From Alphaproteobacteria bacterium (GTDB taxonomy: Bacteria; Pseudomonadota; Alphaproteobacteria; SPJN01), in the NCBI GenBank assembly GCA_049609145.1, contig JBMYYF010000002.1, positions 372,839-436,838 of the forward strand: a stretch of DNA of 64,000 bases. The letters run 5' to 3'. Below are positions 1 through 43,799 of the stretch, piece after piece. The stretch's first letter is position 1, and the number at the start of each line of letters is the position of its first letter. Below the pieces are notes generated by a model. The model did no database searches and was not told the origin of the DNA. It saw only the letters and a program-made list of their open reading frames with translations. Made by a program: the position numbers and the translations under genes.

Positions 1-37
1 AAAAATTAAGGAGCAGGAGTGGTTTAAGGCGACCAAT

Positions 38-385
38 TTGCAAGGCGAGCCGGTTGTAATGGCTGATCATACGGCGGAGTTGCAAATGGTTGAAGGAGAG
101 GTTGCCTATATCGGGGCGGACTACGTGATTGAGAAAGTCGAGCCAGGAAAATCCTATTTCGTTTCGGCGGTATCAGATGCTGGTATTGTAATTAGCTCGG
201 CGCTCTTCTTCTCAAACGATTCAGTAGCACTGGTCGATTTGACGCCAATTCCGTTTACAACTTTGATGTTCAATGTGCCCGAGGTTTATACGAACATGCG
301 TGTTCATGTTATGGGGCCGAAGTTAGAGTTTGTGGATGATGAGGTGGATACCGCAATAAGAATTCGCGTTTTGCGAACGCCATAA
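38..385 (+). CDS. hypothetical protein (115 aa), lower-GC segment
   Basis: Intact ORF with TTG/ATG start options. It ends 5 bp from the convergent kinase gene. No recognisable motifs. Confidence 0.35.
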   Translation: MQGEPVVMADHTAELQMVEGEVAYIGADYVIEKVEPGKSYFVSAVSDAGIVISSALFFSNDSVALVDLTPIPFTTLMFNVPEVYTNMRVHVMGPKLEFVDDEVDTAIRIRVLRTP

Positions 386-390
386 TGCGC

Positions 391-2388
391 TCATGCCTGC
401 TTTATCTTTTGAATGATCTTCGCAGCGTTGTTCAATCGGCGCTGCGGATTGCGTTCCAAAAGAGGGTACAGGGCGCGGGCAAGGCCTTCCGGGCAATTGC
501 TCTGGGCTGCATATTCTCTCCGCGAAATAATTTTGCGTTTTGACTTGCCGCGACTATTCTTGATGGTTATCGGGTTTAGTCCACCTAACCATTCAAGGGC
601 AAATACACCGAAAGAAAACCAATCGGCTGCCTCGGTTGTGCGGCGTCCTACAAGTTGTTCAGGCGCCATGTAGTGAAGGCTGCCATATCCGCGGAATGCC
701 GTTTCCTCTTCCGATAATCTGGCAATGCCAAAGTCGATAAGGACCGGATGCATGCCGTCATCCACCAGTATGTTTTCGGGTTTAAGGTCGCGGTGAATAA
801 CGCCAGCACCGTGGAGCGCGGATATAGCATCAACTATCTTGATCAATACGCTGCGTCGTTGTCGTTCTGAATGTTCTTCCAGCATGAGCCGGTCCAGGCC
901 AACGCCGGCAACAAGATCTTGAACGACAAATAGATCGCCGTTTTCCACATCGCCAAAGGCATGGATGCGTACACAGCCCGGGTGCCGGATTCTGCTCGCG
1001 GCTTCGTATTCCGTGGCAAGTGACTTACGCAGGGCATTTCGCGTCGGGTTGTCGTACAGGCGAGAAAGTTCGACGATTTTTACGGCAACTGTACGGTTAT
1101 GGTCAGTATCGTAGGCGCGATAAACGGTGCCAAAGCCACCAGCCCCGATTTTTTTGCCCAGCACATATCCAGAAACACCAGGTTGTCCTTCGTCGAGCAA
1201 GCGACGGGAGGTGTGGATTGCGCTTTCTTCAATTGACAGTGTTTCCATTGTGCTACGAATTTCGTAACAAATCTTGGATAGTCGTTTACGTCGTGCTTCG
1301 GATAAGGCGATTGAATAGAATTTTTCAGCAAGCGCCATGTCGCGTTCGGCATGATAGGCGCGGCCCAAAGCCCGTGCTGTGGCAATCCGATAAAAGGGTG
1401 TCGCGATTTCATCAAAATATGAAAATACCGGTAGCAGTGTGTTGATTGCGTCACTCGACTGTCCCGCATCAAACTGAACCTCTCCGAGAGCGAGATCAAT
1501 ACGCGCACAAAGACCTTCGTTCTGGAGGGTGTTGGCAAGCTCTTTTGCCTGGTTGAGGGTGTGTGTGCTTTCGATGGTTTGCCCGGTGCCAGCCTGATGC
1601 CGGGCTCGTTCAACGAGCGCGAGGCTGTGATAGTCAGAGGTTGGTGCCTTGGATGCGTAAAACCCTATTGCAGGTTCAATATCTTCGAACGCAGAATCAT
1701 ATTGTTTCAGGTTGAGGCGTGACCGCGCGCTATAGGTGGCCAAGCGTGCCCCGATGACAGTGCTGCTAGGAAATGCGGCGCGGAGGCCACCTAGTATATC
1801 AAGCGCGGTGTTGTTGCGCCCTCTATTTTGGTAGCCACGGGCAATATCAAATAGAACAATCTCTTGGCGAAAGGAGTCTTCTTCGGCGCGGGCAACTACC
1901 AAGGCGCGCACAAACAGGGCTAAGGCTTCATCTAAATCCCCACGTTCCATACACAGTCGGCCCAGTTCCCGCATTAAGCGGTATCGGATCGCCGCGCTGG
2001 GCGATGCTGCCTGTTGCAAATCAAGCAAGATGCTGCGGGCTGCTGCCTGCCGCCCGGTGCTTGCAAGGGCCACCGCCCGAACGATTTGAAGGCGCGCCAT
2101 CAGTATATCTTGGCCATTAGGCGCTGCGCTATTTTCCAAAGCAGCAATAGTATCTTCAACTTGGCTAAGGACTGATTGAAGGGGCAGTGAGGTTGCGATT
2201 GCAGTTTCTGCTTCTATCAGTGTTTTGTGGTGTTCAGAGAGGGAGGCTATATCGCCTAGGCGCGCGGTTGGGCTGTCATGCTCGCCGGAAAGCAGCATTC
2301 TTTCGATTTGGTCAAAGGGGTCTGCGCCAATCACAAAACTGATCCGGCGTTGTGTGCCGCCTCTATGGGGCGGGCACGGCGTTGGCAA
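391..2388 (-). CDS. Ser/Thr protein kinase with N-terminal TPR-like helical repeat region (kinase domain C-terminal)
   Basis: C-terminal Hanks kinase motifs are readable: GAGGFGTVY (P-loop), VAVK, HRDLKPENILV, DFG, APE. The N-terminal roughly 400 aa is Ala/Leu-rich helical repeats. The start is ambiguous: Met at 2388 overlaps the upstream gene by 58 nt, and an alternative Met lies at about 2298. Confidence 0.8.
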   Translation of the reverse strand: MPTPCPPHRGGTQRRISFVIGADPFDQIERMLLSGEHDSPTARLGDIASLSEHHKTLIEAETAIATSLPLQSVLSQVEDTIAALENSAAPNGQDILMARLQIVRAVALASTGRQAAARSILLDLQQAASPSAAIRYRLMRELGRLCMERGDLDEALALFVRALVVARAEEDSFRQEIVLFDIARGYQNRGRNNTALDILGGLRAAFPSSTVIGARLATYSARSRLNLKQYDSAFEDIEPAIGFYASKAPTSDYHSLALVERARHQAGTGQTIESTHTLNQAKELANTLQNEGLCARIDLALGEVQFDAGQSSDAINTLLPVFSYFDEIATPFYRIATARALGRAYHAERDMALAEKFYSIALSEARRKRLSKICYEIRSTMETLSIEESAIHTSRRLLDEGQPGVSGYVLGKKIGAGGFGTVYRAYDTDHNRTVAVKIVELSRLYDNPTRNALRKSLATEYEAASRIRHPGCVRIHAFGDVENGDLFVVQDLVAGVGLDRLMLEEHSERQRRSVLIKIVDAISALHGAGVIHRDLKPENILVDDGMHPVLIDFGIARLSEEETAFRGYGSLHYMAPEQLVGRRTTEAADWFSFGVFALEWLGGLNPITIKNSRGKSKRKIISRREYAAQSNCPEGLARALYPLLERNPQRRLNNAAKIIQKIKQA

Positions 2389-3272
2389 ACGGCATCAATT
2401 GTTGCGAAGATGTGGTCCAGCTCTCGTTCAAGATCTGTCGCCAATATGTTTAGGTCGGACACGTTTCCCTGGGCAATGGTGTCACTAAACGGGGTGTGTT
2501 CTGATTGCAGTGCAAGGAACAGGCTGTCTTCGTCAAAGACAACATGAAGCGTCTTGGGGCGTAGCAATTTGTCGAGGCGTGTAAACTCATTCATGACGTT
2601 GGGGGTCATAAGCTTGCGTCCTGCGACTTGGTCAGTGCCATAGAAGTCGTATTTTTTTTCGAACTCAGGGCTCTCTAGGTGAATGCGTGGCCAAGCGGCC
2701 CCTGCAAGGCTTTTCGGATGGAGACCAAAAGTGCCGGATACTGGAGATACGTTATCAATCCGGGCGACTACACCTTTGAAGCTGCGCTGACGATTGTCCT
2801 TGTTTCTGCTGTGTATCACGCTGATTGAATAGGCCTTGCCATCATGTGTGCCTGTTATCGCAACATGTTCCTGTGTGGATGTATAATCAGGTAAAAGCCC
2901 TTTCACCAAAATGGTGGGGTAAAGTGGGGAGAGAGCTTCGTGAAGCGTAAAGTTATCCCGTCGAGCCAGGAGCGGTGGGAGCAGGATTTGCAAGGCTTGG
3001 CTTTTGGGTGCGTGTAGCACCAATGCAGTAATCAGAATAATACCTAGCAGAAGCACGGAAAATAGTACCGCGAAAAATTCGAGCGGGTAATCCCATTTCA
3101 TTACAAGAATAAGAACTATATTGCTTATAACCAGCGCCCCTCCGCCGAAAGTTACAGTATATAGAGTGACCCGTGTCACGCGGGCCCACCAGCGCATCCG
3201 GTTTAGCTGGCCTGTATAAGGTGTGTAATGTTTGTTAACGAACGCATCGCGGTCGGGTTGATCACGGAACAT
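2331..3272 (-). CDS. DUF3137-like membrane protein (two N-terminal TM helices), paralog 2
   Basis: Two hydrophobic helices at the N-terminus, then a soluble domain. Clearly homologous to the adjacent gene (shared motifs GT.HG...S....., FDF.G.DQ..GR...TP). The family assignment comes from resemblance to proteins usually encoded next to lemA. Confidence 0.55.
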   Translation of the reverse strand: MFRDQPDRDAFVNKHYTPYTGQLNRMRWWARVTRVTLYTVTFGGGALVISNIVLILVMKWDYPLEFFAVLFSVLLLGIILITALVLHAPKSQALQILLPPLLARRDNFTLHEALSPLYPTILVKGLLPDYTSTQEHVAITGTHDGKAYSISVIHSRNKDNRQRSFKGVVARIDNVSPVSGTFGLHPKSLAGAAWPRIHLESPEFEKKYDFYGTDQVAGRKLMTPNVMNEFTRLDKLLRPKTLHVVFDEDSLFLALQSEHTPFSDTIAQGNVSDLNILATDLERELDHIFATIDAVCQRRARPIEAAHNAGSVL

Positions 3273-4282
3273 CAGAATGGTCCTGGCTGTTCATTTTGAT
3301 CATGTATCAAAATGTCGACGGCACGAAGTGCTGTATGTATATCACGAGCGACTTGCGCTACCTGTTGGCGTAGTTCGTCGGCAGGCTGTGATAAGATGCC
3401 GCCGTCGATCCAATTTTGCGGCATCTTGTAGGCGATGAAAATGGTGCCATTCTTGAAAATGGCGCTCAAACTATTTGAGGCAAATGCTTGCGAGAATTGA
3501 TACCACTTTTCCATGCGGGCGGGTGTGAAAATTGTTCGGCCCTCCATTTGGTCCGATCCGAGGAAATCGAAGTGATCTTCGAAGTCAGAACTTTCCAGCT
3601 TTATGGTTTCCCATGCTGTGAGGTTTCTAAAGTATCCTTGGTAGCGTCCTGAGGTGCCGCTATTGGGATACAGTGCGTAAGAGCCGGTAAAGGGATATTG
3701 ACTCGGCGTCTTGATAACCAGACCAGAGAATACGGTTTTGGATCTATCCCGACTTTTTTGCGTTAATGTTGTATCCAGCATGGACACGGGGTGCCCATGA
3801 TAAGTGCCACATATAAAGTCTTCGATACGTAGCCCGTTAAAAGACGGCAGTAGCTCTGGGGTTGTCATCTCTTTGAAGACGCTGCGGGGGGGCTTAGGCG
3901 TATACGAAAAATCGCCATAATGGGCGAGAATGCTGGGCACCACCTTCTCTTTCAGCCGCACTAGATATTGTCCATGAATGACTTTGCGATTTCCGAAAGC
4001 GGCCCCGAAAAGGAGAAATGAAAGGCCGAAGCCAATCGTGACATGCTCGCTACCTGACATCATCAATCCGATATTGGCCGCAATAGTGATGGCCGCCACG
4101 AGCATTATGGCAATTTGTGCTATGCGGGCGCGCAGCTCGAGCTTATGTCGTTCGCGAATAAGGGCGGCGCTGATCGGCGTGATTTCCGCATCAAACAAGA
4201 TGGAGAATGCCGGAGAGGCGGTGAAGGAGGTTTCTTCGCCACCAACTGGCGTTCGTTTTAGGCGGGCAGTCGCATCATCCAT
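3272..4282 (-). CDS. DUF3137-like membrane protein (two N-terminal TM helices), paralog 1
   Basis: Same architecture as the downstream paralog. Its stop overlaps the paralog start by 1 nt and it sits 8 nt after the lemA stop. Confidence 0.55.
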   Translation of the reverse strand: MDDATARLKRTPVGGEETSFTASPAFSILFDAEITPISAALIRERHKLELRARIAQIAIMLVAAITIAANIGLMMSGSEHVTIGFGLSFLLFGAAFGNRKVIHGQYLVRLKEKVVPSILAHYGDFSYTPKPPRSVFKEMTTPELLPSFNGLRIEDFICGTYHGHPVSMLDTTLTQKSRDRSKTVFSGLVIKTPSQYPFTGSYALYPNSGTSGRYQGYFRNLTAWETIKLESSDFEDHFDFLGSDQMEGRTIFTPARMEKWYQFSQAFASNSLSAIFKNGTIFIAYKMPQNWIDGGILSQPADELRQQVAQVARDIHTALRAVDILIHDQNEQPGPF

Positions 4283-4290
4283 ATTTTAGT

Positions 4291-4863
4291 TTATCCGCCT
4301 AGATGATCAGCGGCTGGTATGGCGCCTTTGGGGGTTGCATCATCGATTTCGTAGAAGGGCATTTCGCCGATCTTGATCATGCTTGCCACCAAAGAGCTGG
4401 GGAATATCTGGGTCGCATTGTTCAAATCGGTTACAGCTGAGTTGTAGAACCGACGCGCAGCGGCAATATTTGCTTCAACGTCCTGATATGTTTTTTGCGC
4501 TTTTTGCATCACCGTGTCTGACTTTAGATCAGGATAGTTTTCTGCGATAGCTATCAGACGCCCTAACGTGGACTGCACGCCCTCAGCAGCCTTTAGATGA
4601 TCTTGAACGTCAGCGGCACTGCCTGCGTCGTATGATTTTTCAAACGCGGTACGTGCGGCGGTAAGATCTTCCAGCAATGCCCGTTCATGTTCCATAAATT
4701 TTTTGGCAATTGCTAACACGTTGGGGATTAGGTTTGCCCTCTTTTTGATTTGTACATCTATACCGCTTAGTGCCTCTAGGGCGCGGTTGCGACGTTTGAT
4801 AAGCCTCGAATAAAGCACGTATAAAAGGATACCGATTATGGCGATGACATAGATAGCTTCCAT
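4291..4863 (-). CDS. lemA: LemA family protein
   Basis: N-terminal TM helix followed by the characteristic LemA segment ALSGIDVQIKKRANLIPNVLAIAKKFMEHERALLEDL. Length is 190 aa. Confidence 0.85.
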   Translation of the reverse strand: MEAIYVIAIIGILLYVLYSRLIKRRNRALEALSGIDVQIKKRANLIPNVLAIAKKFMEHERALLEDLTAARTAFEKSYDAGSAADVQDHLKAAEGVQSTLGRLIAIAENYPDLKSDTVMQKAQKTYQDVEANIAAARRFYNSAVTDLNNATQIFPSSLVASMIKIGEMPFYEIDDATPKGAIPAADHLGG

Positions 4864-4864
4864 T

Positions 4865-6643
4865 TTATTGTCCTCTCGTCGCGATAGTGGTTTGTGCGAC
4901 TGTTGCTTTTTGGTTCAGCGCAGCGTTTTCGAAGTTTATGAATTCAGGCAGTAGATTGGTCGTGTGCTGCACTCCCGATAACTGCCCCATGTTTGGTATG
5001 ATTTGCAGCTTCGCATTGGGTAGGCTATTTGTTATGGCTTGGGCATTCTCTAAGGTGTTGATGCCATTGCGATCGCCATGACAAACCAAAATTGGCGTAG
5101 TTATTCGCCGCCACTCAAGGCTGGCCTCATGGATTGCCATTGACAATGCTTGGGCGCTGCCGAGGTGATATTCTGAAACGGTGATTTTGGTGCCGAGGAT
5201 TAAGGCTTTTTTCAAGTCTGGCTCCCGTTCGAACAGCGCTTGATCTGCCGGTGAATCCATCAACCAGCGATCAACAAACTTTGTGATGAATGTGTCAGTG
5301 GCGCGCGTGGATAGGACTTTTGCAACAAAGGATAGTGCCCAATCTGATTTAGAAAATTGCCTAAAGAGCCTTGCGCCGATACTATCGCGTTCTTCTTCAG
5401 GCGGAGATACGCGCGGTGAAATGAGGCAAAGCGCAGATAGTGTTGAGGGGCAGGCTATCGCTGCCTCTAGCGCGAAACGGGCACCCACGGCCATCCCAAT
5501 GGCGGGAAATTTTTGGGTGTTAAACCGCCTTTCGAGTACTGTTAGCAGCTCTGCAATGTCTGCCCGGTATTTGCTCCACGAATAATCTGGTTGAAAACTT
5601 GCTTGCCCTCTGCCGGAAAGTTGGGGGCAGATAAAACAAATGTTCATCTCATACAACAATGCGTTCATGCCAGCTGACGCAACATATTCATTCAGGGGGC
5701 TGTTGAAAATAAGAATGGGCTTGCCGATAGCCGGGCCATAAACATGGTAGGCGATCTTGTTGCCATCTTTCAGTTCAACCAAGCTGGGGTTGCGATAAAT
5801 AGCAAGCCCATCAAACGAGGAGGAAGATTGGAGGGTTTTGTCTCTGGTTTCTCGTCCCGGTATTGCAATGCTTAGCATCGTTAAAAGTCGGATGAGATCA
5901 GATTGGCGGTTCACACCAACCTTCGCGAAAACGGATTTAAGGTGATTGCGCGCAGTGTTGTGAGCGATGTTGAGTTGGTCTGCCGCTTCCTTTAGCGCCA
6001 TTCCCTGTTGCAGGTAACGCACTAGTTCGGTTTCAGCATGGGTGAGGCCAAGGCCGATTGTGGTTGAGGGGGTGCCCTTCTGCTCAGCGGTGAGTGGAAG
6101 AAGGAAAATGGATATTTGGTTCTTTTCACCGATCCGGTTGATGACCGCGATTAGGGGTGATGCGTCTTCCGCTGCTGGTAAGCGCACTAGTCGCGGCCCA
6201 CCTCCATCGTCTCTTGCCATCACCAAGGCCGTCATGAATGGGTCACGCAACTCTGTTTCGTGCAGGTCAAAACGTTGCCCTAGGCCCAGCCCCTTACAAT
6301 AGGGGTTGATGAGCGAAAGTGCCTCGCTGCCTGCTGCCATAACTTTTAGATCCATGGATAATAGTAGACGGCAGCGGTCCAAGGGGTGCACTTCGTCCGT
6401 TCGGTCGAGCTGATGGCTAACGCGTTCGGCAATTTTGAGCGCGCGGTCTAGATGGGATTGCAACTCACCATATGTCTCAAGTTCTTCGAGGTTTAGCTCA
6501 AGGCGCTCAAGCTCGGAAAGCATGTCCAATGCCGCGTCGGCGGTATCGGCTTCGCTTGCGTATCGGTAGATAAAGTCCATTAGTGTCATATAGATATCAA
6601 GTGATGCATCTGCTTTTGGTGCTATATCGGACTTCGTCGCCAT
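4865..6643 (-). CDS. LuxR-family HTH transcriptional regulator fused to a C-terminal alpha/beta-hydrolase-fold domain (probably non-catalytic)
   Basis: LuxR-type HTH is readable mid-protein (LTHAETELVRYLQQGMALKEAADQLNIAHNTARNHLKSVFAKVGV). The C-terminal roughly 300 aa has alpha/beta-hydrolase topology, but the nucleophile elbow reads GMAVG (Ala in place of Ser) and the HG position reads NS. A 1-nt gap separates it from lemA. Confidence 0.7.
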   Translation of the reverse strand: MATKSDIAPKADASLDIYMTLMDFIYRYASEADTADAALDMLSELERLELNLEELETYGELQSHLDRALKIAERVSHQLDRTDEVHPLDRCRLLLSMDLKVMAAGSEALSLINPYCKGLGLGQRFDLHETELRDPFMTALVMARDDGGGPRLVRLPAAEDASPLIAVINRIGEKNQISIFLLPLTAEQKGTPSTTIGLGLTHAETELVRYLQQGMALKEAADQLNIAHNTARNHLKSVFAKVGVNRQSDLIRLLTMLSIAIPGRETRDKTLQSSSSFDGLAIYRNPSLVELKDGNKIAYHVYGPAIGKPILIFNSPLNEYVASAGMNALLYEMNICFICPQLSGRGQASFQPDYSWSKYRADIAELLTVLERRFNTQKFPAIGMAVGARFALEAAIACPSTLSALCLISPRVSPPEEERDSIGARLFRQFSKSDWALSFVAKVLSTRATDTFITKFVDRWLMDSPADQALFEREPDLKKALILGTKITVSEYHLGSAQALSMAIHEASLEWRRITTPILVCHGDRNGINTLENAQAITNSLPNAKLQIIPNMGQLSGVQHTTNLLPEFINFENAALNQKATVAQTTIATRGQ

Positions 6644-6791
6644 ACCGCCCTAATCCCCCTTAGTTTTCTTGGAGCACTTAGCAAAATAGATATATATCGG
6701 GAACTTATTCAGATATAGTCCATTTGAGCTATGTTGACTGATTGGCTCCCTCATTAGGCTGTGGATGATCCATTGCCGAAGGAGGCTCCTG

Positions 6792-7874
6792 ATGCGTCTG
6801 CACTTAAAACTACCGCTTGTTTTTGCTGTGTTTTTGGGGCTTTTTTCCCCCGCATTTGCTGCCAATGATCAAGCGCGCGAAGCTTATTACGAAGGCATCA
6901 AAGCGCGTGATGCTAACGACTATCAGCGCTCACATAGCCTGTTATGCGTGGCCGCCAAGGCCGAATACCCAGATGCTGTAATGGAGTGCGGCATGACCTA
7001 TTTGTTAGGTGCGGGTGTCGCCAGAAATGTACAAAATGGTATTTTGCTATTAGCTCGAGCAGCTGAGCTGAAGGTGGGGGCTGCCGCATTTAGACTTTCG
7101 TTGCTTTATTTGAAGGGCGAAGTAGTGCAACGCGATCTTGCTAAGGCGAAGACCTATTTGCTGCAAGGGGCGAATTTAGGTAGCGGTGAAGCGGAATATG
7201 CATTGGCGAATGCTTATATGCGGGGCATGACAGTAGATGGGGTTGTTGTATTTGCAAAGGATGTAGTGCAGGCAGCCATATGGATGGAGAAAGCAGCGAG
7301 CTACTCAATGCAGTCCTCATTCGATTATGGCATTGTCCTTTATCAAGGCATTGGACGCCCATCTGACAAAATGGAGGGGTTGAAATGGATTGAGATGTCT
7401 ATCGGTATGGGCGGCATGAAAGCGGCTGATGTGCTGACCAAAATCTATCGGACCGATGCAGAGGTAAAGGCGCTATATGATGAACAAGGCCTGCAAATGG
7501 TTCAACAACATGAGGCCGGCGAGGGGGGACGTATCTATGATGTCGTGGGCCCGGGGTTCGGTCGTGCGCCGCCTGCGGGAATGGTTATGGTTGACCCTAC
7601 CTTCTATTTCCGACTTGGCTTGCGGGCCGCCTACGGGTTAGGGGTCTCAGGTGGACCAGTTGCTGCCGTTAAATATTGGCAACATGACATCGACTCCAAT
7701 GTTGGCTTCTCGGGGTCAATGTTTTTGCTTGGCATGGCCTATTATACTGGAACGGGTGTTGTTGAGGACAAAGTTAAAGGTATTGCCCTGCTGCAACGCC
7801 TAAATATGGGCTCACATGAAGGGGCAGCTGCTTTCTTGCGGTCCATTAAGGCGCCCCTTAAGCCTCCCAAGTGA
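6792..7874 (+). CDS. secreted Sel1-like repeat protein
   Basis: Signal peptide MRLHLKLPLVFAVFLGLFSPAFA. Repeated Sel1-like motifs (..A..Y..GIGV..D...A..W..KAA..G...A). RBS AAGGAGG lies 7 nt upstream of the ATG at 6792. Confidence 0.75.
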   Translation: MRLHLKLPLVFAVFLGLFSPAFAANDQAREAYYEGIKARDANDYQRSHSLLCVAAKAEYPDAVMECGMTYLLGAGVARNVQNGILLLARAAELKVGAAAFRLSLLYLKGEVVQRDLAKAKTYLLQGANLGSGEAEYALANAYMRGMTVDGVVVFAKDVVQAAIWMEKAASYSMQSSFDYGIVLYQGIGRPSDKMEGLKWIEMSIGMGGMKAADVLTKIYRTDAEVKALYDEQGLQMVQQHEAGEGGRIYDVVGPGFGRAPPAGMVMVDPTFYFRLGLRAAYGLGVSGGPVAAVKYWQHDIDSNVGFSGSMFLLGMAYYTGTGVVEDKVKGIALLQRLNMGSHEGAAAFLRSIKAPLKPPK

Positions 7875-8107
7875 GGCGATGCTGCGGCATCCAGATTATC
7901 ATTTCATCAATATTGCTCGCCTCTGTCGGCAGCTTCTCTGTTTTAGTGTACGCACAAGGAAACCGCTGTCGAAGCTCATAGGGCGTCGAGGCTAAACTTA
8001 CCGTTGTTAGTTTCCAATTCCCTGCTAAGTCATTGATTTCTTGGGTGGTCTATCAAAGGCAGTTTCCATCTAACCTATAGAAATCACTAAGATAAGACCT
8101 AATTCGT

Positions 8108-8150
8108 AATGATGGGGTCAGGTGTTCAAATCACCTAAGCGGCACCACCA
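8108..8150 (+). other. orphan tRNA 3-prime end fragment (T-arm AGGTG-TTCAAAT-CACCT, acceptor 3-prime strand, discriminator, CCA), putative att-site remnant
   Basis: The sequence ggggtcaggtgttcaaatcacctaagcggcacca has a canonical T-stem/loop and a CCA tail. No complementary 5-prime acceptor strand or anticodon arm lies upstream, so this is not a complete tRNA gene. Confidence 0.45.
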
Positions 8151-8175
8151 CCTTATCCTTGACGTTATTCCCCCC

Positions 8176-8616
8176 TTAGGCCGTGAGCGTGTAGCGCAAA
8201 ATCTCAACCACTTGGTCTGGCGTCTTTGCCCATCCAGCCGCTGCACCATCAACTTCTTTCAAAGGGTGTACGATGTTTTCATCGTGTAAGGTGATGTAGG
8301 GCTTGCCCAGTGCAGCACATTGGCCGGCATCGAAGGCGGCGTTCCATTGCTTGTATTTGTCGCCAAAGCGGATCACCGCGATGTCGCATTTTTGGATGAG
8401 CGTCCGAATGCGAAGTGCGTTTATCTTGGCCGATTGGTGATCGCGCCAAAAATCCTCGTCTGGCTTCCCAAGAACGTCACCAGCCGCATCACTGCTTTCA
8501 TGATGCGTGTTGGCTGAGGTGAAGGTGATGTCGAGATCAAGTGCTTTTGCCCCGGCGATAATTTGTGCGCGCCAATCAGTGTGAATTTCTCCAGAAAGGT
8601 AAACCTGCCAAGACAT
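8176..8616 (-). CDS. YtoQ family protein
   Basis: MSWQVYLSGEIHTDWR... is a typical YtoQ N-terminus. Length is 146 aa. Confidence 0.8.
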   Translation of the reverse strand: MSWQVYLSGEIHTDWRAQIIAGAKALDLDITFTSANTHHESSDAAGDVLGKPDEDFWRDHQSAKINALRIRTLIQKCDIAVIRFGDKYKQWNAAFDAGQCAALGKPYITLHDENIVHPLKEVDGAAAGWAKTPDQVVEILRYTLTA

Positions 8617-9538: not shown

Positions 9539-11071
9539 ATGACAGACGCGCAGAAAAACTTGGATGACAAGACACCCATTTTGGTGGGGGCCGGGCAATA
9601 TGTAGAGCGTCAGGCAACGCCGCATGGGCCAATGTATTTGGCCTCACAAGCGGCGGCGGGAGCGGTTGCCGATTGTGGCGCACCAAATATCGCCGCTCAT
9701 ATCGATACGATCGGTGTGATTCGCCTGTTCTCCGATTCATTGGGACCGTGGACCGGCAAACATGGGCGCAGCAACAATCCACCGCAATCAATTGCCAAGG
9801 CAATCGGGGCGTCCCCGAAAACACGCATCTACAGCCCCGTAGGCGGCAATGAACCACTATCTTTGCTGATCGAATGTGCCAAGGATATTGCTGAAGGCAA
9901 AAAAGAGATGGCACTGATCGCCGGATCGGAGGCTATAAAAAACCAGCGTCAGGCCGATCGTGATGATCAGACATTGTCATGGGATGAAGTATTTGATGAG
10001 CCGTTTGATGATCGGTTGGCCCCGCCTTCTTTGTTGACGGTGCAGGAACGCTATTCCGGTCTGGCAACACCCATTCGCACCTACAGCCTGTTTGATCAGG
10101 CCCGGCGCCATGCGCAGCGGGCAGACCTTGCCTCCTACAGTAATGCCATGGCGGCGTTGATGGCACCTTTGAGTGAAGTTGCCGCCCAAAACCCCTATGC
10201 CCAGTTTCCTGAAAGCTACAGCGCCGATGACATTGCCAAGTCACGGCAGCTCACACACATGTATACCGGGCGTATGGTGGCGCGTGATGCGGTCAATTTG
10301 GGTGCCGCTGTCCTCGTGTGCAGTGTTGGGAAGGCCAAGCAGCTTGCCATCCCTCAAGATCGCTGGGTGTTTTTGCATGGATTGGCCGAAGGCAAGGAAC
10401 TGCGCCCAAGTGAACGGCCAAATCTTGCCACCTCACCCATGGCGGGCAAGGTTGTGGATCGGGCACTCGATCTGGCGGAAAAAGACATCGCAGGCATTGA
10501 TGGGCTTGATATTTATAGCTGTTTTCCCTGTGCGGTAAGTATGTTGACGGATCATCTGGGTATTCCAACCGATGGCAGCCGCGCGCTGACACTGACCGGC
10601 GGGCTGCCTTATCTTGGAGGCCCCGGCAATAATTACAGTATGCACGCTTTGGCAGAGGCTCTTTGGCGCTGCCGCCAGCGACCGGATGATTTTACGCTGG
10701 TCACGTGCAATGGAGGCTTTTTGTCCAAACATGCCACCGGCGTTTTCTCTGCGGTGCCCAGTTTGAGAGACTGGAGCCGCGTTGAGACACGGATTTCGCA
10801 ATCCGGGCTGGATAAAAAGCCGTTGGCGACGCACCCGACCGGTGGGCGCATCATCTCATACGCCGTGGATTACTGGGGCAGCGACACCCCCACAGGCGCG
10901 TGTGTTCTGGCTGAAACTGATACGGGTGAGCGGTTTATCTGCACAACAGCAGAAGGTGACAACGCCACCGCCGCAAGTTTTGCCGATGCCGATGACCTGA
11001 CAGGCAGGCTGATCCTTACGCGCCCGGCCAATGTGGAACAAGAGACGTTCCATTTCGCGTTGTCGCTATAA
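9539..11071 (+). CDS. thiolase-like (SCP-x/thiolase superfamily) protein
   Basis: Thiolase-fold signatures are present (GGLPYLGGPGNNYSMHALAE, CNGGFLSKHATG). RBS GAGGGGG precedes the ATG at 9539. The upstream in-frame extension is rejected. Confidence 0.65.
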   Translation: MTDAQKNLDDKTPILVGAGQYVERQATPHGPMYLASQAAAGAVADCGAPNIAAHIDTIGVIRLFSDSLGPWTGKHGRSNNPPQSIAKAIGASPKTRIYSPVGGNEPLSLLIECAKDIAEGKKEMALIAGSEAIKNQRQADRDDQTLSWDEVFDEPFDDRLAPPSLLTVQERYSGLATPIRTYSLFDQARRHAQRADLASYSNAMAALMAPLSEVAAQNPYAQFPESYSADDIAKSRQLTHMYTGRMVARDAVNLGAAVLVCSVGKAKQLAIPQDRWVFLHGLAEGKELRPSERPNLATSPMAGKVVDRALDLAEKDIAGIDGLDIYSCFPCAVSMLTDHLGIPTDGSRALTLTGGLPYLGGPGNNYSMHALAEALWRCRQRPDDFTLVTCNGGFLSKHATGVFSAVPSLRDWSRVETRISQSGLDKKPLATHPTGGRIISYAVDYWGSDTPTGACVLAETDTGERFICTTAEGDNATAASFADADDLTGRLILTRPANVEQETFHFALSL

Positions 11072-11151
11072 AATCTTCGGCGGGATGCCGATTGAAGGCT
11101 GGTCTTTGCTGCTCTATGTTGCAACCAGAGGAAGTGTTGAGGGGAAATCTA

Positions 11152-13593
11152 ATGCGTAGTTTGAAACTGGCGGTAGCCATTGTGGCTACCCAGCTTGGGT
11201 TGGTTGTGTCTGTGTCTGCGCAAGAGGCGGGGGACGTGCTGGAGGTGGATGTTGCTGAGGAAGGCACAGCCCAGGAAAATTCCGTTGCGCCGCAGAAGAA
11301 CGCGCAGCTTGATGAAATTATCGTAACGGCGCAAAAGCGCGAAAAGCGTTTGCAAGATGTGCCTATGGCTATTTCTGCCTTCGGGCGCGAGGCCATTGAG
11401 GCGAACGAGATTAACAACATTGAAGATTTGACCAAGTTGGTGCCGTCTTTGCGGGTAACGCCGGCAGATGACCCGACCAATACCAGCCTGCGCATTCGCG
11501 GTGTTGGCACAGATGTTTATTCCATCGCGGTTGAACCGAACGTGTCGGTTGTTGTTGATGAGGTGCCCTTGGCGCGTACAGCCATTGCCAGCTTTGAATT
11601 TGCCGATCTGGAGCGGGTGGAGGTGATGCGCGGCCCTCAAGGCACGCTTTTTGGCAAAAATTCGACCGCCGGGTTGATCCACGTTATTTCGCGCGACCCG
11701 TCGCAGGATTTTGAGGCGTTCGCGCGTGCTGTTCATGAACAGCCAAATGATTTGCCCGGCAGTTTGACGAATTTTCAGGCTGGGGCCAGCGGTCCCGTAT
11801 CTGACAGTGTGGGATTGCGTCTTACCGGTTTTTACAAATTTGTCGGGGGGCATTTGGAAAATGTACTCAATGGCGAAAATTTGCCTGATCGGGAATCCTT
11901 TGGTGCACGCGGCAAACTGATGTGGGATGGCCCGGCACTGACCGCCCGGTTGAACACGGAATTCCAGCGTTCCACGGGGCCTTCCACCCCCTTCGTACCG
12001 CGCACCGTAAACCCCGATGTGGCCTCACGCAGCCCGGAAATCACCTATGGTGAGGAAAACACCAAGACCAAAGCATATGACAATGCCGTTTCCGACGTTG
12101 ATAATTTTGGTACATCGTTAAAGCTGGATTGGGATTTGGGGGCGGTCACGCTGACCTCTGTTACCGGCTGGCGTTATTTCCACATCTTGCGTGATTTTAC
12201 CGTGCCCGAAGTGGATGGGGACCGGATTGATCTGCCGCGCAATGGTGGTGATCGTGACATTCAAACCCTGACGCAAGAGGTGCGCATAACGTCGAATGAT
12301 GCCGGGGCGTTTGAATATACCGTAGGCGCGCTGTGGTTCCAAAACCGCTTGCGCAACTTCTTTGAACGACGCATTGCGAATGTGCCGACGACCTATTTGA
12401 TTGTCGCAGGCTCACCGCTGCCATTGCCCTATATCGTGCTGCCAGAAGAACTTGAAGCTGTGCCGGGGGAAAGCTTCGGATCGTATGAGCGCACCCGTGG
12501 GTTGGTGCGCACCCGTAATCTTGGCGTATTTGCGCAATCAACCTGGCACGCAACGGATCGGTTGCATGTGACAGCGGGGGCGCGGTTCATCTATGAAAAG
12601 CAAATCGGGGAGCGTCAATCGCACAGTCATCTGTATAATGAAACAACGGGAATTGAATTTCAGGAAGCGGATTTCAACATCAGCGATGCAACGATTGAAG
12701 ATCAAACTGTGATCGGCACGTTTTCCTTGCAATATGATGTGGCAGAAAACGCGCGCCTTTATGGCACAATCTCAACGGGTTATCGCGGCGGCGCGTTTGA
12801 TTTTGCCAGCTCCAACCCGGAAGAGGCTTTCGCCAATCCGGTAGAGCCAGAAACCTCCTTGTCGTTTGAAATTGGCAGCAAGTCGCGTTTGTTTGACAAT
12901 CGGTTGGAAATCAACGTGGCCTTGTTCCGCACAGTGTTTGAGGATTTTCAGGCGCAGATCACGGATTTGGGGGATGATGATAATCCGTTGGCTATTTCTG
13001 CCCTAGCGTTCCGGCTGGATAATGCGGGCGAACTAGAAACCAAGGGGATCGAGATTGATTTTCAGGCCCGGCCAAGTGCCTCCTTGTTTATGTTCGGCTC
13101 ATTGCTTTTTGCCGATGCGAAGTTCAACGAGTTTGATACACAGTGCTTTGTCGGGCAGGAGCCCGGCGAAAATGGCGGTGTAGATGGTGATGGAAACGGC
13201 ACATGCGACACCCAAAGTGTGGCCGGGGGCCGTATGCCCAATGCCCCGAAATGGAGCGCGTCGCTCAGCGGGCGTTATGAACATCAGCTCAATCGCAATA
13301 ATGGGCTGGCGTATTTGCAAGTCACCGGGCGGTATGTAGGCGAAGTGCAGTTCAGTGCCGAGCAACATCCGGGGGCGGTGCATGATGCTTATCAAATTTG
13401 GGATATGCGTTTGGGGTGGATCGGCCTGGACGACCGGCTGGAAGTGGCAGCCTATGTGAAGAACGTGTTCGATCAGCACTACGCCTCTGCCATTGTGCCG
13501 TTTTCGATCACCAATGATCGGCGTGATCTGGCGCATTTTGTGCCGCGGGATACGGATCGAAACTTTGGCCTTTCTGTCGGGTATCAGTTCTAG
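11152..13593 (+). CDS. TonB-dependent receptor
   Basis: Signal peptide, then a TonB box/plug (DEIIVTAQKREKRLQDVPMAISAF), then a long beta-barrel ending in a C-terminal aromatic residue (...GYQF). Confidence 0.85.
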   Translation: MRSLKLAVAIVATQLGLVVSVSAQEAGDVLEVDVAEEGTAQENSVAPQKNAQLDEIIVTAQKREKRLQDVPMAISAFGREAIEANEINNIEDLTKLVPSLRVTPADDPTNTSLRIRGVGTDVYSIAVEPNVSVVVDEVPLARTAIASFEFADLERVEVMRGPQGTLFGKNSTAGLIHVISRDPSQDFEAFARAVHEQPNDLPGSLTNFQAGASGPVSDSVGLRLTGFYKFVGGHLENVLNGENLPDRESFGARGKLMWDGPALTARLNTEFQRSTGPSTPFVPRTVNPDVASRSPEITYGEENTKTKAYDNAVSDVDNFGTSLKLDWDLGAVTLTSVTGWRYFHILRDFTVPEVDGDRIDLPRNGGDRDIQTLTQEVRITSNDAGAFEYTVGALWFQNRLRNFFERRIANVPTTYLIVAGSPLPLPYIVLPEELEAVPGESFGSYERTRGLVRTRNLGVFAQSTWHATDRLHVTAGARFIYEKQIGERQSHSHLYNETTGIEFQEADFNISDATIEDQTVIGTFSLQYDVAENARLYGTISTGYRGGAFDFASSNPEEAFANPVEPETSLSFEIGSKSRLFDNRLEINVALFRTVFEDFQAQITDLGDDDNPLAISALAFRLDNAGELETKGIEIDFQARPSASLFMFGSLLFADAKFNEFDTQCFVGQEPGENGGVDGDGNGTCDTQSVAGGRMPNAPKWSASLSGRYEHQLNRNNGLAYLQVTGRYVGEVQFSAEQHPGAVHDAYQIWDMRLGWIGLDDRLEVAAYVKNVFDQHYASAIVPFSITNDRRDLAHFVPRDTDRNFGLSVGYQF

Positions 13594-13616
13594 GGTTGAA
13601 ACGCTTTGGGGGCGGA

Positions 13617-14543
13617 ATGATGCGGTGGTTTTTGCGGATCGTTTTTGGTTTGGTGATTGTTGCCTGTGTTGGTTCAGGGGTGGTGGTTTGGCAGTTTAAC
13701 AAGCAAAACTTTGTCGCTGATCCGTCTGCGCCGGAATATCAAAACCGTATTGTTGCGCTTTGGCCGGAAGATGCGGTGCCGGACTATAAGTCCAATGCAT
13801 ATGGGCTTGAAAACTGGCCGTGGTATATTCGCTATTTGCAAAAAGATGATGTGGCGCATAAGCCCTATATGCTGAAATATCTGGTCGAAAGTGATACGCC
13901 GCAGCCAGCCGTTCTGGTGTTTCCCGGCGGTGGTTACCTCATCCGTGCAGAGCGGCACGAAGGCACCAAAATGGCGGAGTGGTTGAATAGCCTTGGGATC
14001 AACGCCTTTGTAGTGAACTATCGGCTTGTGCCTTATATGCACCCCGTGCCGCTGAACGATGTGAAACAGGCCATGCAGATTGTGCGGGACAATGCCGATG
14101 CGTGGGGAATTGATCCAAATCGAATTGGTGTGATGGGCTTTTCTGCCGGGGGGCATCTGGCGGGGCTGGCGTCAAACGCGGTGCCGGATGCATTGCGGCC
14201 TGATTTCGCCATTTTGGGTTACGCCGTGCTGGCACCTGAGCATTTTCCGATGACACATCTGGACGATCACATCGATGTGCCGGTGAAAGAAGTGTCACCC
14301 AATTTATTGGCAACGGCTAAAACGCCACCAACCTTCATTTGGCAAACAAAGGCAGACCCCCTTGTCTCGCATGAAAATGCCACTATCTACCGTGACACAT
14401 TGCAGGCAGCCGGAGTGCCGGTGGAGTTGCAGTTGTTCGAAACGGGCGGACATGGCTTGGGCTTGGCGGAAGACCATGAAGAGGCAGGCGTTTGGCCTGA
14501 TTTGGCGGAGGCGTGGTTGCGTCGCGGTGGTATTATAGAATAA
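13617..14543 (+). CDS. alpha/beta hydrolase (esterase/lipase-like), membrane-anchored or secreted
   Basis: N-terminal hydrophobic segment. Esterase motifs are readable: VLVFPGGGY and the nucleophile elbow GFSAGG. Confidence 0.75.
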   Translation: MMRWFLRIVFGLVIVACVGSGVVVWQFNKQNFVADPSAPEYQNRIVALWPEDAVPDYKSNAYGLENWPWYIRYLQKDDVAHKPYMLKYLVESDTPQPAVLVFPGGGYLIRAERHEGTKMAEWLNSLGINAFVVNYRLVPYMHPVPLNDVKQAMQIVRDNADAWGIDPNRIGVMGFSAGGHLAGLASNAVPDALRPDFAILGYAVLAPEHFPMTHLDDHIDVPVKEVSPNLLATAKTPPTFIWQTKADPLVSHENATIYRDTLQAAGVPVELQLFETGGHGLGLAEDHEEAGVWPDLAEAWLRRGGIIE

Positions 14544-41422: not shown

Positions 41423-42580
41423 ATGCAAGATACCCCCGTCACCCAGCCGGCCTGGATGGATGAAGAACTTGAAATCTTTAAGGACGCCGCAGGCAAATTT
41501 TTTGATGCCGAATGCGCCCCCAATGCAGAGCGTTGGGAAGAACAGGGCTTTGTCGATCGCGACATCTGGAACAAAATGGGCGAAATGGGCTTCTTGAACG
41601 CCTCTATCTCGGCTGATTATGGCGGCGCAGGCGGCGACTTTCGGCACGAGGCGGTGCTCTACGAACAGCAAGTAAAAAAGAATGCAGGCGGCATTGGTGT
41701 GTCCGTACATTCCGGCATTTGCGCCCATTACATTCAATCTTACGGCACCGAAGAACAAAAGCAGCGCTGGCTGCCGGATATGGCAACAGGCAAAAAAGTC
41801 TGCGCCATCGCCATGACGGAACCTGGCACCGGGTCTGATCTTCAAAACGTGAAGACCACTGCCGTGATGGACGGGAACGAGCTTGTGGTGAACGGTCAAA
41901 AAACCTTCATCACCAATGGGCAGCAGGCCGACTTGATTATTGTGGTCGCCAAAACCGATCCCACCCAAGGCTCCAAAGGTATTTCTCTGGTCATGGTGGA
42001 CGCGACGGAATGCGAAGGCTTCAAGCGTGGCCGCAATCTCAAAAAAGTGGGGATGAAATCTCAGGACACGTCAGAGCTTTTCTTTGATAATGTGCGCGTA
42101 CCCACCTCTAACCTTATTGGGGAACAAGCGGGCCAAGGTTTCATTCAATTGATGCAACAATTGCCGCAAGAACGCTTGATTATTGGCGTAAACTGCGTGG
42201 CGATTGCAGAACAAGCTTTGGACGAAACCATTCAATATACGCGTGAGCGCAAGGCGTTTGGTCAAAGCGTGATTGATTTCCAAAACACGCGCTTCAAATT
42301 GGCGGAAATGAAAACCCAAATCACCATTGGGAAAACCTTCGTCAACAAATGCGTTGAAGCGTTGATGAAGGGCGAGCTTGATCCCGCCACCGCCTCTATG
42401 GCGAAATATTGGACATCGCAAATGGTGAACGATGTGGTGGATGAATGCGTTCAGCTTCACGGCGGTTATGGCTATATGTGGGAATATCCCATTGGCCGCA
42501 TGTATGCCGATGTGCGTATCCAAAAAATCTTCGGTGGCACAAACGAGATTATGAAAGAACTGATCGGCCGGACTTTGTAA
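41423..42580 (+). CDS. acyl-CoA dehydrogenase
   Basis: Classic roughly 385-aa ACAD (TEPGTGSDLQNVKTTA...). RBS AGGAG precedes the ATG at 41423. Confidence 0.85.
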   Translation: MQDTPVTQPAWMDEELEIFKDAAGKFFDAECAPNAERWEEQGFVDRDIWNKMGEMGFLNASISADYGGAGGDFRHEAVLYEQQVKKNAGGIGVSVHSGICAHYIQSYGTEEQKQRWLPDMATGKKVCAIAMTEPGTGSDLQNVKTTAVMDGNELVVNGQKTFITNGQQADLIIVVAKTDPTQGSKGISLVMVDATECEGFKRGRNLKKVGMKSQDTSELFFDNVRVPTSNLIGEQAGQGFIQLMQQLPQERLIIGVNCVAIAEQALDETIQYTRERKAFGQSVIDFQNTRFKLAEMKTQITIGKTFVNKCVEALMKGELDPATASMAKYWTSQMVNDVVDECVQLHGGYGYMWEYPIGRMYADVRIQKIFGGTNEIMKELIGRTL

Positions 42581-42682
42581 TCTCTCACGGCAGCAGGCTT
42601 GCGCCCGCGCCTACGAGGTGCAGCGCGTGGTCCGGCAACGAAGTTGCACCACAGGAAACCGCGCTGGACTTGAAATTCAGAA

Positions 42683-42726
42683 GGGCAGTCCCAGCATTAT
42701 TTTGCGGGCTGCCCTTTGTTGTTTTG
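42683..42726 (+). terminator. Rho-independent terminator after the ACAD gene
   Basis: GGGCAG-N-CTGCCC stem followed by tttgttgtttt. Confidence 0.55.
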
Positions 42727-42772
42727 CGCATTAAGATTGATACGTTTAAGTGCCGATTCGGTGGAGGATTGC

Positions 42773-43228
42773 ATGCAAATCAAAAGTCCTAATAAGGAAT
42801 GGGTTGCCCAAGAACTGGATAAGCTGTTCCACGAGTGGCTCGAATGGAAGGATGAAGTCGGGCAAATCGTGGACCATCCGTATGATGCCCATCGCGAATC
42901 GCAAGTTTTTGCCGATGGTAGAGAGAACATGCAAAAACACCGGGTGCTGCAGGCTAAAACGATTGAATTCCTTAATCAAAACATCAAGAGACACGGCTTT
43001 ATCTATCGTGATGGGCGCGGCGCTGATCGCACAGACCTTCGGCTGAATATCCGTGTTCAGCACCGAATTGATGATCTCGACGAGATCAAAGCGCGGTTGG
43101 AATATGCGAGTGTAACTGACGGGTTTTGGCGTGAACAAGGAAAGAAGCTGATTGGGAAAATCGTGGCTAATCCTTTCAAAGCCGTTGAAACTGCGGCTAC
43201 AGCACTTAAGAATTCTCGGGTGTTGTAG
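42773..43228 (+). CDS. hypothetical protein (151 aa), lower-GC orphan
   Basis: Clean ORF, by eye about 48% GC against a backbone near 58%. No recognisable motif. Followed by a hairpin cluster. Confidence 0.4.
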   Translation: MQIKSPNKEWVAQELDKLFHEWLEWKDEVGQIVDHPYDAHRESQVFADGRENMQKHRVLQAKTIEFLNQNIKRHGFIYRDGRGADRTDLRLNIRVQHRIDDLDEIKARLEYASVTDGFWREQGKKLIGKIVANPFKAVETAATALKNSRVL

Positions 43229-43388
43229 AGAGTTGGAAAACTGTTTCCATCGCGTAGCGATGGATCGCGCCCGACCCGCCCCACAGGGCGGGTGCGAAAA
43301 CGCACCCACCCTCGGGCCGGACACGATTGTTTTTGGGGTTCTAATTCCTCGAGCCCATGCTAGCCTTTTCTCAAACAAGGAGGGTCCC

Positions 43389-43799
43389 ATGAATAAGCCA
43401 CTTATGCGTTTAGGCTTTGTGCTGTTGTTGTTAAGCCTGCTGGCGGCACTTGTTGCGCCACAGGCGCAAATACCGCGCTTGGCGGTTAGTGCGCACTCCA
43501 TCGGCTTTATGGGCGGCATCATGTTGTTTGCCATTGGCGCTGGCTGGTCGGCCTTCAGCCTTTCAGACCGCCAAAAGAACCTGCTTAAATGGAGCTGGAT
43601 TTGGGCCAATTTTGGTAATTGGGCTGGCGTGTCCATCGCGTCTCAAACGGGCGCGACGGATCTATTACAGATCAATGGCGGTGCGCCCGATGCGCCCATT
43701 TGGGCAACCATCATCGTCTATTTCTTCATGATTACCATCATGGTTGCCGCGCTTACCGGCAGTGTGTTGGGTGTGATGGGGCTGAAAAAAGAAGATTAA
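43389..43799 (+). CDS. small integral membrane protein (136 aa, about 4 TM)
   Basis: Strong RBS AAGGAGGG precedes the ATG. The translation is almost entirely hydrophobic helices. Confidence 0.55.
   Translation: MNKPLMRLGFVLLLLSLLAALVAPQAQIPRLAVSAHSIGFMGGIMLFAIGAGWSAFSLSDRQKNLLKWSWIWANFGNWAGVSIASQTGATDLLQINGGAPDAPIWATIIVYFFMITIMVAALTGSVLGVMGLKKED

Follow-up and report, generated by a model that had tools for sequence, protein, structure and literature searches.

How did a 46-nucleotide piece of a threonine tRNA gene come to lie between two protein-coding genes of an uncultured marine alphaproteobacterium, and does it mark the edge of a genomic island? The piece is located at positions 8102-8147 of the stretch of DNA that we analysed (the window), which comprises 64,000 nucleotides (nt) of the GenBank assembly GCA_049609145.1 (GTDB lineage SPJN01; contig JBMYYF010000002.1, positions 372,839 to 436,838 of the forward strand). 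An earlier note, written from the sequence alone, had taken the left side of this window for an island that ends at an orphan tRNA 3' end near position 8150 and runs leftwards past the window start. The reading we propose retains this right edge and this direction, with other coordinates and other GC values: positions 8102-8147 are probably the attR-type right junction of an island integrated at tRNA-Thr(CGT) by an integrase. Three independent lines point to such an edge: the composition of the adjoining DNA, the alignment with a related species, which stops in the tRNA remnant, and the ends of the remnants, which fall at integrase subsites.

The tRNA-Thr(CGT) remnant

In BLAST and MAFFT alignments, the 46 nt of the fragment correspond to A31 to A76 of a 76-nt tRNA-Thr(CGT) gene. 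The fragment aligns without gaps and with 100% identity, over 45-47 nt, with the 3' ends of the intact tRNA-Thr(CGT) genes of other alphaproteobacterial genomes (L004, L010, L012, L013 and L014), and it is 92-94% identical to six further tRNA-Thr(CGT) genes. The 25-nt T-arm/acceptor core AGGTGTTCAAATCACCTAAGCGGCA, searched in 185,579 species genomes (596 Gb), gave 11 exact matches, all of them in Alphaproteobacteria and each within an intact tRNA-Thr(CGT). From 5' to 3', the fragment contains the anticodon loop TTCGTAA (CGT at 8105-8107), the 3' anticodon stem, the variable loop, the T-arm AGGTG/TTCAAAT/CACCT, the acceptor strand AAGCGGC, the discriminator A and CCA. The earlier note had correctly recognized the T-stem, the T-loop, the acceptor strand, the discriminator and CCA, and had placed them at 8108-8150; the fragment is real, but it starts 6 nt earlier, includes the anticodon and ends at 8147.

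The same note had claimed that the tRNA lacks a 5' half, and this is borne out. ARAGORN calls no tRNA gene in the window, no Rfam family reaches its gathering score there, and the 30 nt upstream of 8102 do not align with the tRNA 5' half. The fragment does not form a complete cloverleaf, the 5' acceptor strand and the D-arm being absent, and it is not a functional tRNA gene. The 46-mer has no second copy in the window, nor in the adjoining 9.6 kb on its left (contig L019, see below). Two other assignments were rejected: a permissive Rfam scan of 7850-8250 returned only Plastid-ycf2 (E=1.3), a chance match, and the 3' end of a transfer-messenger RNA is ruled out by an acceptor strand that pairs with GCCGCTT and by database matches that are all tRNA-Thr.

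The arrangement recalls that of the genomic islands integrated in tRNA genes (tDNAs) which are collected in Islander (Hudson, Lau and Williams 2015, PMC4383910; Williams 2002 cited there). The crossover subsites of integrases in tRNA genes are the anticodon loop, the T-loop and the T/acceptor junction, and the 'A' class, which uses the anticodon-loop subsite, accounts for 2083 of the 3919 Islander islands (PMC4383910). As in these islands, the 3' tDNA fragment of the window is intergenic (the Sel1 gene and ytoQ flank the 7875-8175 gap that contains it, and it overlaps no conserved protein domain) and is oriented as a displaced piece downstream of an island. It is an end fragment that reaches the tRNA 3' end including CCA, and not an internal piece, which is the configuration required by Islander. 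Its identity to the tRNA begins one nucleotide ahead of the anticodon loop (position 31), and thereby at the anticodon-loop subsite; the DNA that adjoins it is anomalous and the far flank is conserved. Because a 3' fragment must lie downstream of its tDNA according to the Islander configuration rule, the island would lie to the left.

Composition of the two sides

The GC content is 0.504 at positions 1-8101 and 0.552 at 8148-64000, which corresponds to a step of about 5 points. The lowest 8.1-kb window of the right side is not below 0.538, and the 1-kb windows of the left and right sides differ with p=6e-9 (Mann-Whitney). The shift is greatest at synonymous third codon positions, with a GC3 of 0.526 for the 14 left-hand genes vs 0.618 for the 39 right-hand genes (p=2e-7), and the first and second codon positions (GC1 and GC2) are also somewhat lower on the left. 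In tetranucleotide usage, the left-hand chunks lie at a distance of 0.205-0.208 from the right-hand mean, compared with 0.13-0.17 for chunks of the right side. The windowed GC and tetranucleotide profiles, which the earlier note had put forward as a check, are therefore not uniform, and it is the left side that deviates; the GC drop which that note had estimated by eye is real on the left, but the 57-60% it gave for the right side was an overstatement. A composition that differs from that of the surrounding chromosome is one of the criteria for a genomic island, and the difference is seen here in GC, GC3 and tetranucleotides. The step is blurred, the rise in GC starting only from about 8750.

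The orthologous junction in a related species

Of the relatives available, the closest is represented by L018, a Logan contig from SRR29548387, whose YtoQ and thiolase-like proteins are 98% and 78% identical to those of the window. It aligns with window positions 11056-8127 at 80% DNA identity, and this alignment covers the thiolase-like gene, the nitroreductase gene, the syntenic ytoQ (about 80% DNA identity) and the 28-nt spacer, and ends inside the tRNA remnant. Directly after CCA, the spacer sequence CCACCTTATCCTTGACGTT of the window aligns with CTACCTTATCCTTTACGTT of L018. The remnant of L018, CAAATCACCTAAGCGGCACCA, represents tRNA positions 56-76 (21 nt) and starts at C56 in the T-loop. 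The DNA directly before it is unrelated to the window and to the tRNA; beyond the scar it holds the start of a different secreted protein and has 51% GC, vs 54% for the rest of the contig. The flank on the right of the tRNA 3' end is consequently kept in both species and the DNA on the left differs, each species having its own remnant length. The earlier note had asked for a comparison with relatives, and in this one comparator the result agrees with its reading, the left segment being absent at the orthologous junction.

In the window the remnant begins 1 nt ahead of the anticodon loop, and in L018 inside the T-loop; both starts fall at recognised crossover sites of tyrosine integrases, and a rough estimate of the probability that both breakpoints lie in loops by chance is (16/76)^2 = 0.04. 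Since tRNA-Thr remnants are found at two subsites in two related species, the tRNA-Thr(CGT)/ytoQ site appears to be an integration hotspot that has been used through both subsites. The 21-nt remnant of L018, which starts inside the T-loop at the orthologous site, resembles those left by T-loop-targeting elements, such as mycobacteriophage Ms6 at tRNA-Ala (PMC1762012) and the group I.a integrases of Klebsiella islands (bioRxiv 10.1101/2020.11.02.365908). Unlike these elements, it is known by 290 nt that contain no integrase, and the resemblance concerns L018 and not the window.

The 11 genomes that have this tRNA 3' end in common show no synteny with the window, the YtoQ homologues at 88-96% identity stand in unrelated contexts without a tRNA, and metagenome scans for the tRNA-ytoQ junction gave no match. 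In GCA_025450675.1, the contig ends 84 nt past the nitroreductase. The neighbourhood of tRNA-Thr(CGT) is not conserved across families. Among the proteins encoded beside the intact gene, HemY was seen in L004 and L012, and a DUF2793 protein in two metagenome-assembled genomes (MAGs) of Hyphomicrobiaceae (L013 2152-3684, L014 4312-5751).

The DNA beyond the window start

An exact-protein look-up retrieved a Logan contig from SRR27204695 (L001/L019), of which 17,741 of 18,163 nt were analysed. This contig is 100% identical to window 1-8131 and runs 9,610 nt further left, so that the low-GC DNA on the left of the scar measures at least 17.7 kb; a GC content of about 0.50 is maintained across all of it (0.502 vs 0.552 on the right). 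Furthermore, two contigs of the MAG GCA_049610165.1, one of which crosses the junction, match parts of the region at 99.9-100% identity; between the three samples in which the segment occurs, its identity is likewise 99.9-100%.

No tyrosine integrase was found among the 16 called genes and the leftover open reading frames (ORFs) of the 17.7 kb seen, which are part of the putative interval, and no cognate full-length tRNA-Thr was found in the window or in the 9.6 kb beyond its start. A search against PHROGs detected no phage structural, packaging or lysis genes that would indicate a prophage; its matches were a generic kinase, a helix-turn-helix (HTH) protein, an esterase and a Sel1-like protein, together with a weak match of a LemA-like protein (1.2e-6) to a 'virion structural protein' family. 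The att core has no match in IMG/VR, and plasmids gave no match either by DNA or by the DUF3137 protein. Islander requires a cognate full-length tDNA upstream, in the same orientation and on the same replicon, 2-200 kb away (PMC4383910). Unlike the islands of that collection, the locus described here does not display the regenerated full-length tDNA and the tyrosine integrase in the available 17.7 kb. With its tDNA scar, its accessory cargo, its gene remnants and the lack of mobility genes in the visible 17.7 kb, it resembles integrase-less or degenerate islands and tRNA-side hotspots.

The end of the contig itself provides a further indication. Logan contigs derive from a de Bruijn graph with k=31 in which each 31-mer occurs once per accession, and L001 stops at window position 8131, after the first 30 nt (k-1) of the 46-nt repeat. 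Such a stop is expected if the 31-mer that begins at 8102 has a second predecessor, for example in an intact tRNA-Thr of the sample. This is consistent with, and no proof of, a second sequence in the SRR27204695 sample that is identical from A31 and differs at position 30, as an intact tRNA-Thr(CGT) would.

Model for the formation of the junction and its alternatives

The model we propose combines these observations in the following way. In the ancestor, tRNA-Thr(CGT) would have stood tail-to-tail with ytoQ. A tyrosine integrase would have recombined the attP of an element with the tRNA gene at its anticodon loop, the element bringing its own copy of the tRNA 3' end, so that a working gene would have been rebuilt at the far (left) end and the original 46 nt would have stayed beside ytoQ as the attR-side repeat. 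Everything on the left of the scar, i.e. at least 17.7 kb at 50% GC, would be island DNA, with the intact tRNA-Thr lying further left. If the junction is attR, the non-coding spacer on the island side would be an arm derived from attP. Candidate arm-type integrase sites in this spacer (7875-8101), namely AGTTTCCA in two copies and GGAAAC repeats, were rejected, as most shuffled sequences equal those counts. In the related species L018, the site would have been used separately by an element crossing over in the T-loop. The empty site would read as the tRNA 5' half GAGCACATC, then ATTCGTAATG...GGCACCA, then CCACCTTATCCTTGACG. We regard the chances as about even that the island is still present in full, its left end bearing an intact tRNA and an integrase.

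Several observations weigh against an integrase-made edge. The 17.7 kb on the left of the scar are devoid of an intact tRNA, an integrase, a transposase or a phage gene. The empty site, an intact tRNA-Thr beside ytoQ, was found in no relative searched, and an integrase is adjacent to none of the 10 intact tRNA-Thr(CGT) loci of other families (L004-L010, L012-L014). The syntenic comparison has L018 as its single comparator, which extends only 290 nt beyond the scar. The GC step amounts to only 5 points and is not sharp at 8150, since the conserved ytoQ itself has about 50% GC. The contig break at 8131 may stem from the tRNA of another organism of the metagenome, and the tRNA behind it may belong to a different genome, since several families have an identical copy of this tRNA; breaks also occur elsewhere, the next long contig (L026) starting at 8341 inside ytoQ.

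Could the scar be older than the DNA which now adjoins it? In this scenario, an earlier event at the tRNA-Thr hotspot would have left the remnant, the cargo would since have been replaced through tandem insertions, recombination or the deletion of the integrase end, and positions 1-8101 would be a degenerate variable region. The 17.7 kb without integrase or tRNA, the gene remnants and the inverted duplicated LemA module of the segment agree with such a history, and so does the differing remnant length at the same site in L018, which is expected from the serial use of a hotspot. The composition is nevertheless uniform at about 0.50 over the 17.7 kb, the segment is 99.9-100% identical in the three samples carrying it, and the remnant still has 100% identity to functional tRNA-Thr genes over its 46 nt, which speaks against a very old scar. 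We hold a replaced cargo to be improbable. A tRNA pseudogene made by deletion appears very unlikely. Here a resident tRNA-Thr(CGT) beside ytoQ would have lost its 5' 30 nt through a deletion or an inversion, independently of any integrase, and the low-GC DNA would have been brought alongside. A tRNA-Thr(CGT) is perhaps dispensable where tRNA-Thr(UGU) reads ACG, and both the visible DNA without an integrase and the spacer without significant arm-type repeats fit this scenario. It has to account, however, for truncations that are independent in the window and L018 and yet both fall in the loop sublocations used by integrases, for a remnant that carries no mutation at all and for adjoining DNA that is compositionally foreign.

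The left segment might finally be native and vertically inherited, its lower GC reflecting a gene content of membrane proteins, secreted proteins and fast-evolving paralogues, and the tRNA-like 46-mer being incidental. The modest size of the GC difference, to which GC1 and GC2 contribute, and the equally low GC of the conserved ytoQ are in line with this possibility, but the shift is greatest at synonymous third positions, chance cannot produce a 46/46 match to a tRNA, and the absence of the segment at the orthologous L018 junction already comes close to refuting native descent, which we regard as extremely unlikely. We thus return to a junction made by an integrase at tRNA-Thr(CGT). It involves no new principle: it would be an ordinary genomic-island boundary, of a kind of which tRNA-fragment-bounded examples are catalogued by the thousand. 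On this reading, the scar fixes one endpoint of the island to the base (8101/8102), and it marks the roughly 18 kb of LemA, DUF3137, kinase and protease genes as accessory and probably horizontally acquired, not as part of the core genome.

Gene content of the segment

The features of the window on both sides of the junction are collected in Table 1. The ORF at 38..385 mentioned in the earlier note is formed by the last 115 codons of the gene of an FHA/trypsin-like protease of 567 amino acids (aa), which is complete on the longer contig (L019 7747-9450, equivalent to window -1318..385; Pfam Trypsin_2 7.6e-15, FHA 6.8e-5) and convergent with the minus-strand operon. The kinase has 647 aa as called and 665 aa if it starts at an upstream TTG at 2388; the exact 647-aa product is encoded on the same Logan contig.

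Table 1. Features of the putative island side, the junction and the conserved flank (window coordinates)
Feature	Position	Strand	Remarks
FHA/transmembrane/trypsin-like (Trypsin_2) protease, C-terminal end	1..385	+	starts 1318 nt left of the window
TPR + Ser/Thr protein kinase	391..2334	-	last gene of the minus-strand operon; Pfam Pkinase 2e-42 + TPR
DUF3137 membrane protein, 313 aa	2331..3272	-	Pfam DUF3137 1e-16
DUF3137 membrane protein, 336 aa	3272..4282	-	Pfam 2.6e-17
LemA family protein, 190 aa	4291..4863	-	Pfam LemA 1.1e-40
LuxR-type HTH + alpha/beta hydrolase fusion, 592 aa	4865..6643	-	first operon gene; Pfam GerE 4e-8, Hydrolase_4 1.7e-8
Secreted Sel1-repeat protein, 360 aa	6792..7874	+	last gene of the putative island; Pfam Sel1 6.5e-20, signal-peptide-like N-terminus
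Non-coding spacer, island side of the junction	7875..8101	.	227 nt, no ORF, no similarity to L018
Orphan tRNA-Thr(CGT) 3' fragment	8102..8147	+	tRNA positions 31-76
Chromosomal spacer, tRNA 3' end to YtoQ stop codon	8148..8175	.	28 nt, conserved in L018
YtoQ family protein	8176..8616	-	first gene of the conserved flank, convergent with the tRNA remnant; Pfam 1.1e-60
Nitroreductase, 225 aa	8708..9385	-	conserved flank; Pfam 5.4e-27; same position in L018 and L025

On the left of the protease gene, the contig encodes, in order, an 82-aa remnant of a DUF3137 C-terminus (orf82), a second Sel1 protein (29% identical to that of the window), a DUF3137 protein and a protein with four transmembrane segments and, further left, another DUF3137 protein, a second LemA, a 101-aa remnant of a LuxR-hydrolase N-terminus (orf101), a fifth DUF3137 and a 159-aa ORF. 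The two LemA genes form inverted repeats about 10 kb apart, with 70% DNA and 76% aa identity (L019 3311-3792 and 14045-14526, equivalent to window 4340-4821 and about -6394..-5913). Each of them is followed by a DUF3137 gene and preceded by the LuxR-hydrolase gene or its 101-aa remnant, which indicates an ancient inverted duplication of the module within the putative island. The diverged paralogues, the two gene remnants (orf82 and orf101) and the scarcity of close homologues among 5.8 billion proteins are traits often seen in accessory regions.

The 313-aa DUF3137 protein has two hydrophobic helices and is 23% identical to the neighbouring DUF3137. The AlphaFold2 model of the 336-aa protein, built on a 60-sequence alignment (predicted local distance difference test score (pLDDT) 89, predicted template modelling score (pTM) 0.86), predicts a long helical hairpin followed by an alpha/beta domain. 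No match in the PDB was obtained at the sequence level, and the only significant match of the model in a PDB fold search was TtfA, the mycobacterial trehalose monomycolate transport factor A (6t84; Foldseek E=1e-4, target-normalised TM score 0.56, 10% identity). The likeness would concern the predicted alpha/beta domain, both proteins being membrane-anchored; unlike TtfA, the DUF3137 protein belongs to a host that does not produce mycolates, and at 10% identity this is a resemblance of fold only. The DUF3137 family is of modest size (1513 representatives at E<=1e-3), and no representative other than itself exceeds 40% identity to the window copy. One paralogue has no relative other than itself at E<=1e-10 in an index of 5.8 billion proteins, and essentially no literature on DUF3137 was found.

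In a PADLOC search for anti-phage defence systems, no full-length signature was matched: the catalytic domain of the kinase alone matches mad6, PD-T4-6 and MkoA, with scores well short of the family cut-offs, the score of the kinase against the NCBIfam MAD6 model being 128 bits for a cut-off of 460, and the LemA, DUF3137 and Sel1 proteins have no PADLOC match. The pairing of a kinase with a protease that carries an FHA domain suggests, from gene content, a phospho-dependent signalling at the membrane. Could the LemA/DUF3137 membrane modules, counted as at least three diverged copies, the kinase, the FHA-protease, the Sel1 proteins and the LuxR-hydrolase then make up a system of envelope signalling or conflict that is undescribed and horizontally transferred, the kinase controlling a membrane protease through its FHA domain, on an island that is perhaps integrase-less and mobilised in trans? 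We consider this proposal unlikely; the LemA/DUF3137/kinase/protease cargo is nonetheless the only part of the locus that might lead somewhere new.

The conserved flank and other observations in the window

Two ORFs of the window stand out by their codon-position composition. The first (42746-43636, minus strand, 296 aa) is without a Pfam match, and its GC1, at 0.49, is unusually low; at 42001-43000 the GC content falls locally to 0.49, within a region that is otherwise at 0.53-0.58. The second (53525-54769, minus strand, 414 aa) belongs to no Pfam family, has an atypical GC1 of 0.50 and GC2 of 0.51, and lies among genes of lipid and fatty-acid metabolism.

The product of the first gene of the conserved flank scores above the cut-off of the NCBIfam YtoQ_fam model. 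YtoQ is 88-98% conserved at the aa level across L015-L017, L020-L024 and L027-L035, and its neighbours there are wholly different, including MarR/FMO, HisG, a BcsB-like protein and abhydrolase/nitroreductase-376. The GC content of ytoQ, at about 50%, lies below that of the chromosome around it. Such differing contexts would result either from heavily rearranged genomes or from a movement of ytoQ itself. The 510-aa thiolase-like protein encoded at 9539-11071 on the plus strand has no match in a Pfam hmmscan. It is near the PRK08257-type 'acetyl-CoA acetyltransferase' models of NCBIfam (400 bits, below the 683-bit cut-off), and its homologues, which carry the precomputed thiolase-like domains PF18313/PF22691, come mostly from marine Gammaproteobacteria at about 50-55% identity. 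Between this gene and kefB, positions 11092-14543 of the window encode a TonB-dependent receptor (833 aa) and a BD-FAE/alpha-beta esterase (315 aa); in L025, kefB directly follows the thiolase-like gene, and L018 has three small ORFs (181, 90 and 128 aa) in that place. This place has the appearance of a further variable spot, smaller than the one at the scar and some 3 kb to its right.

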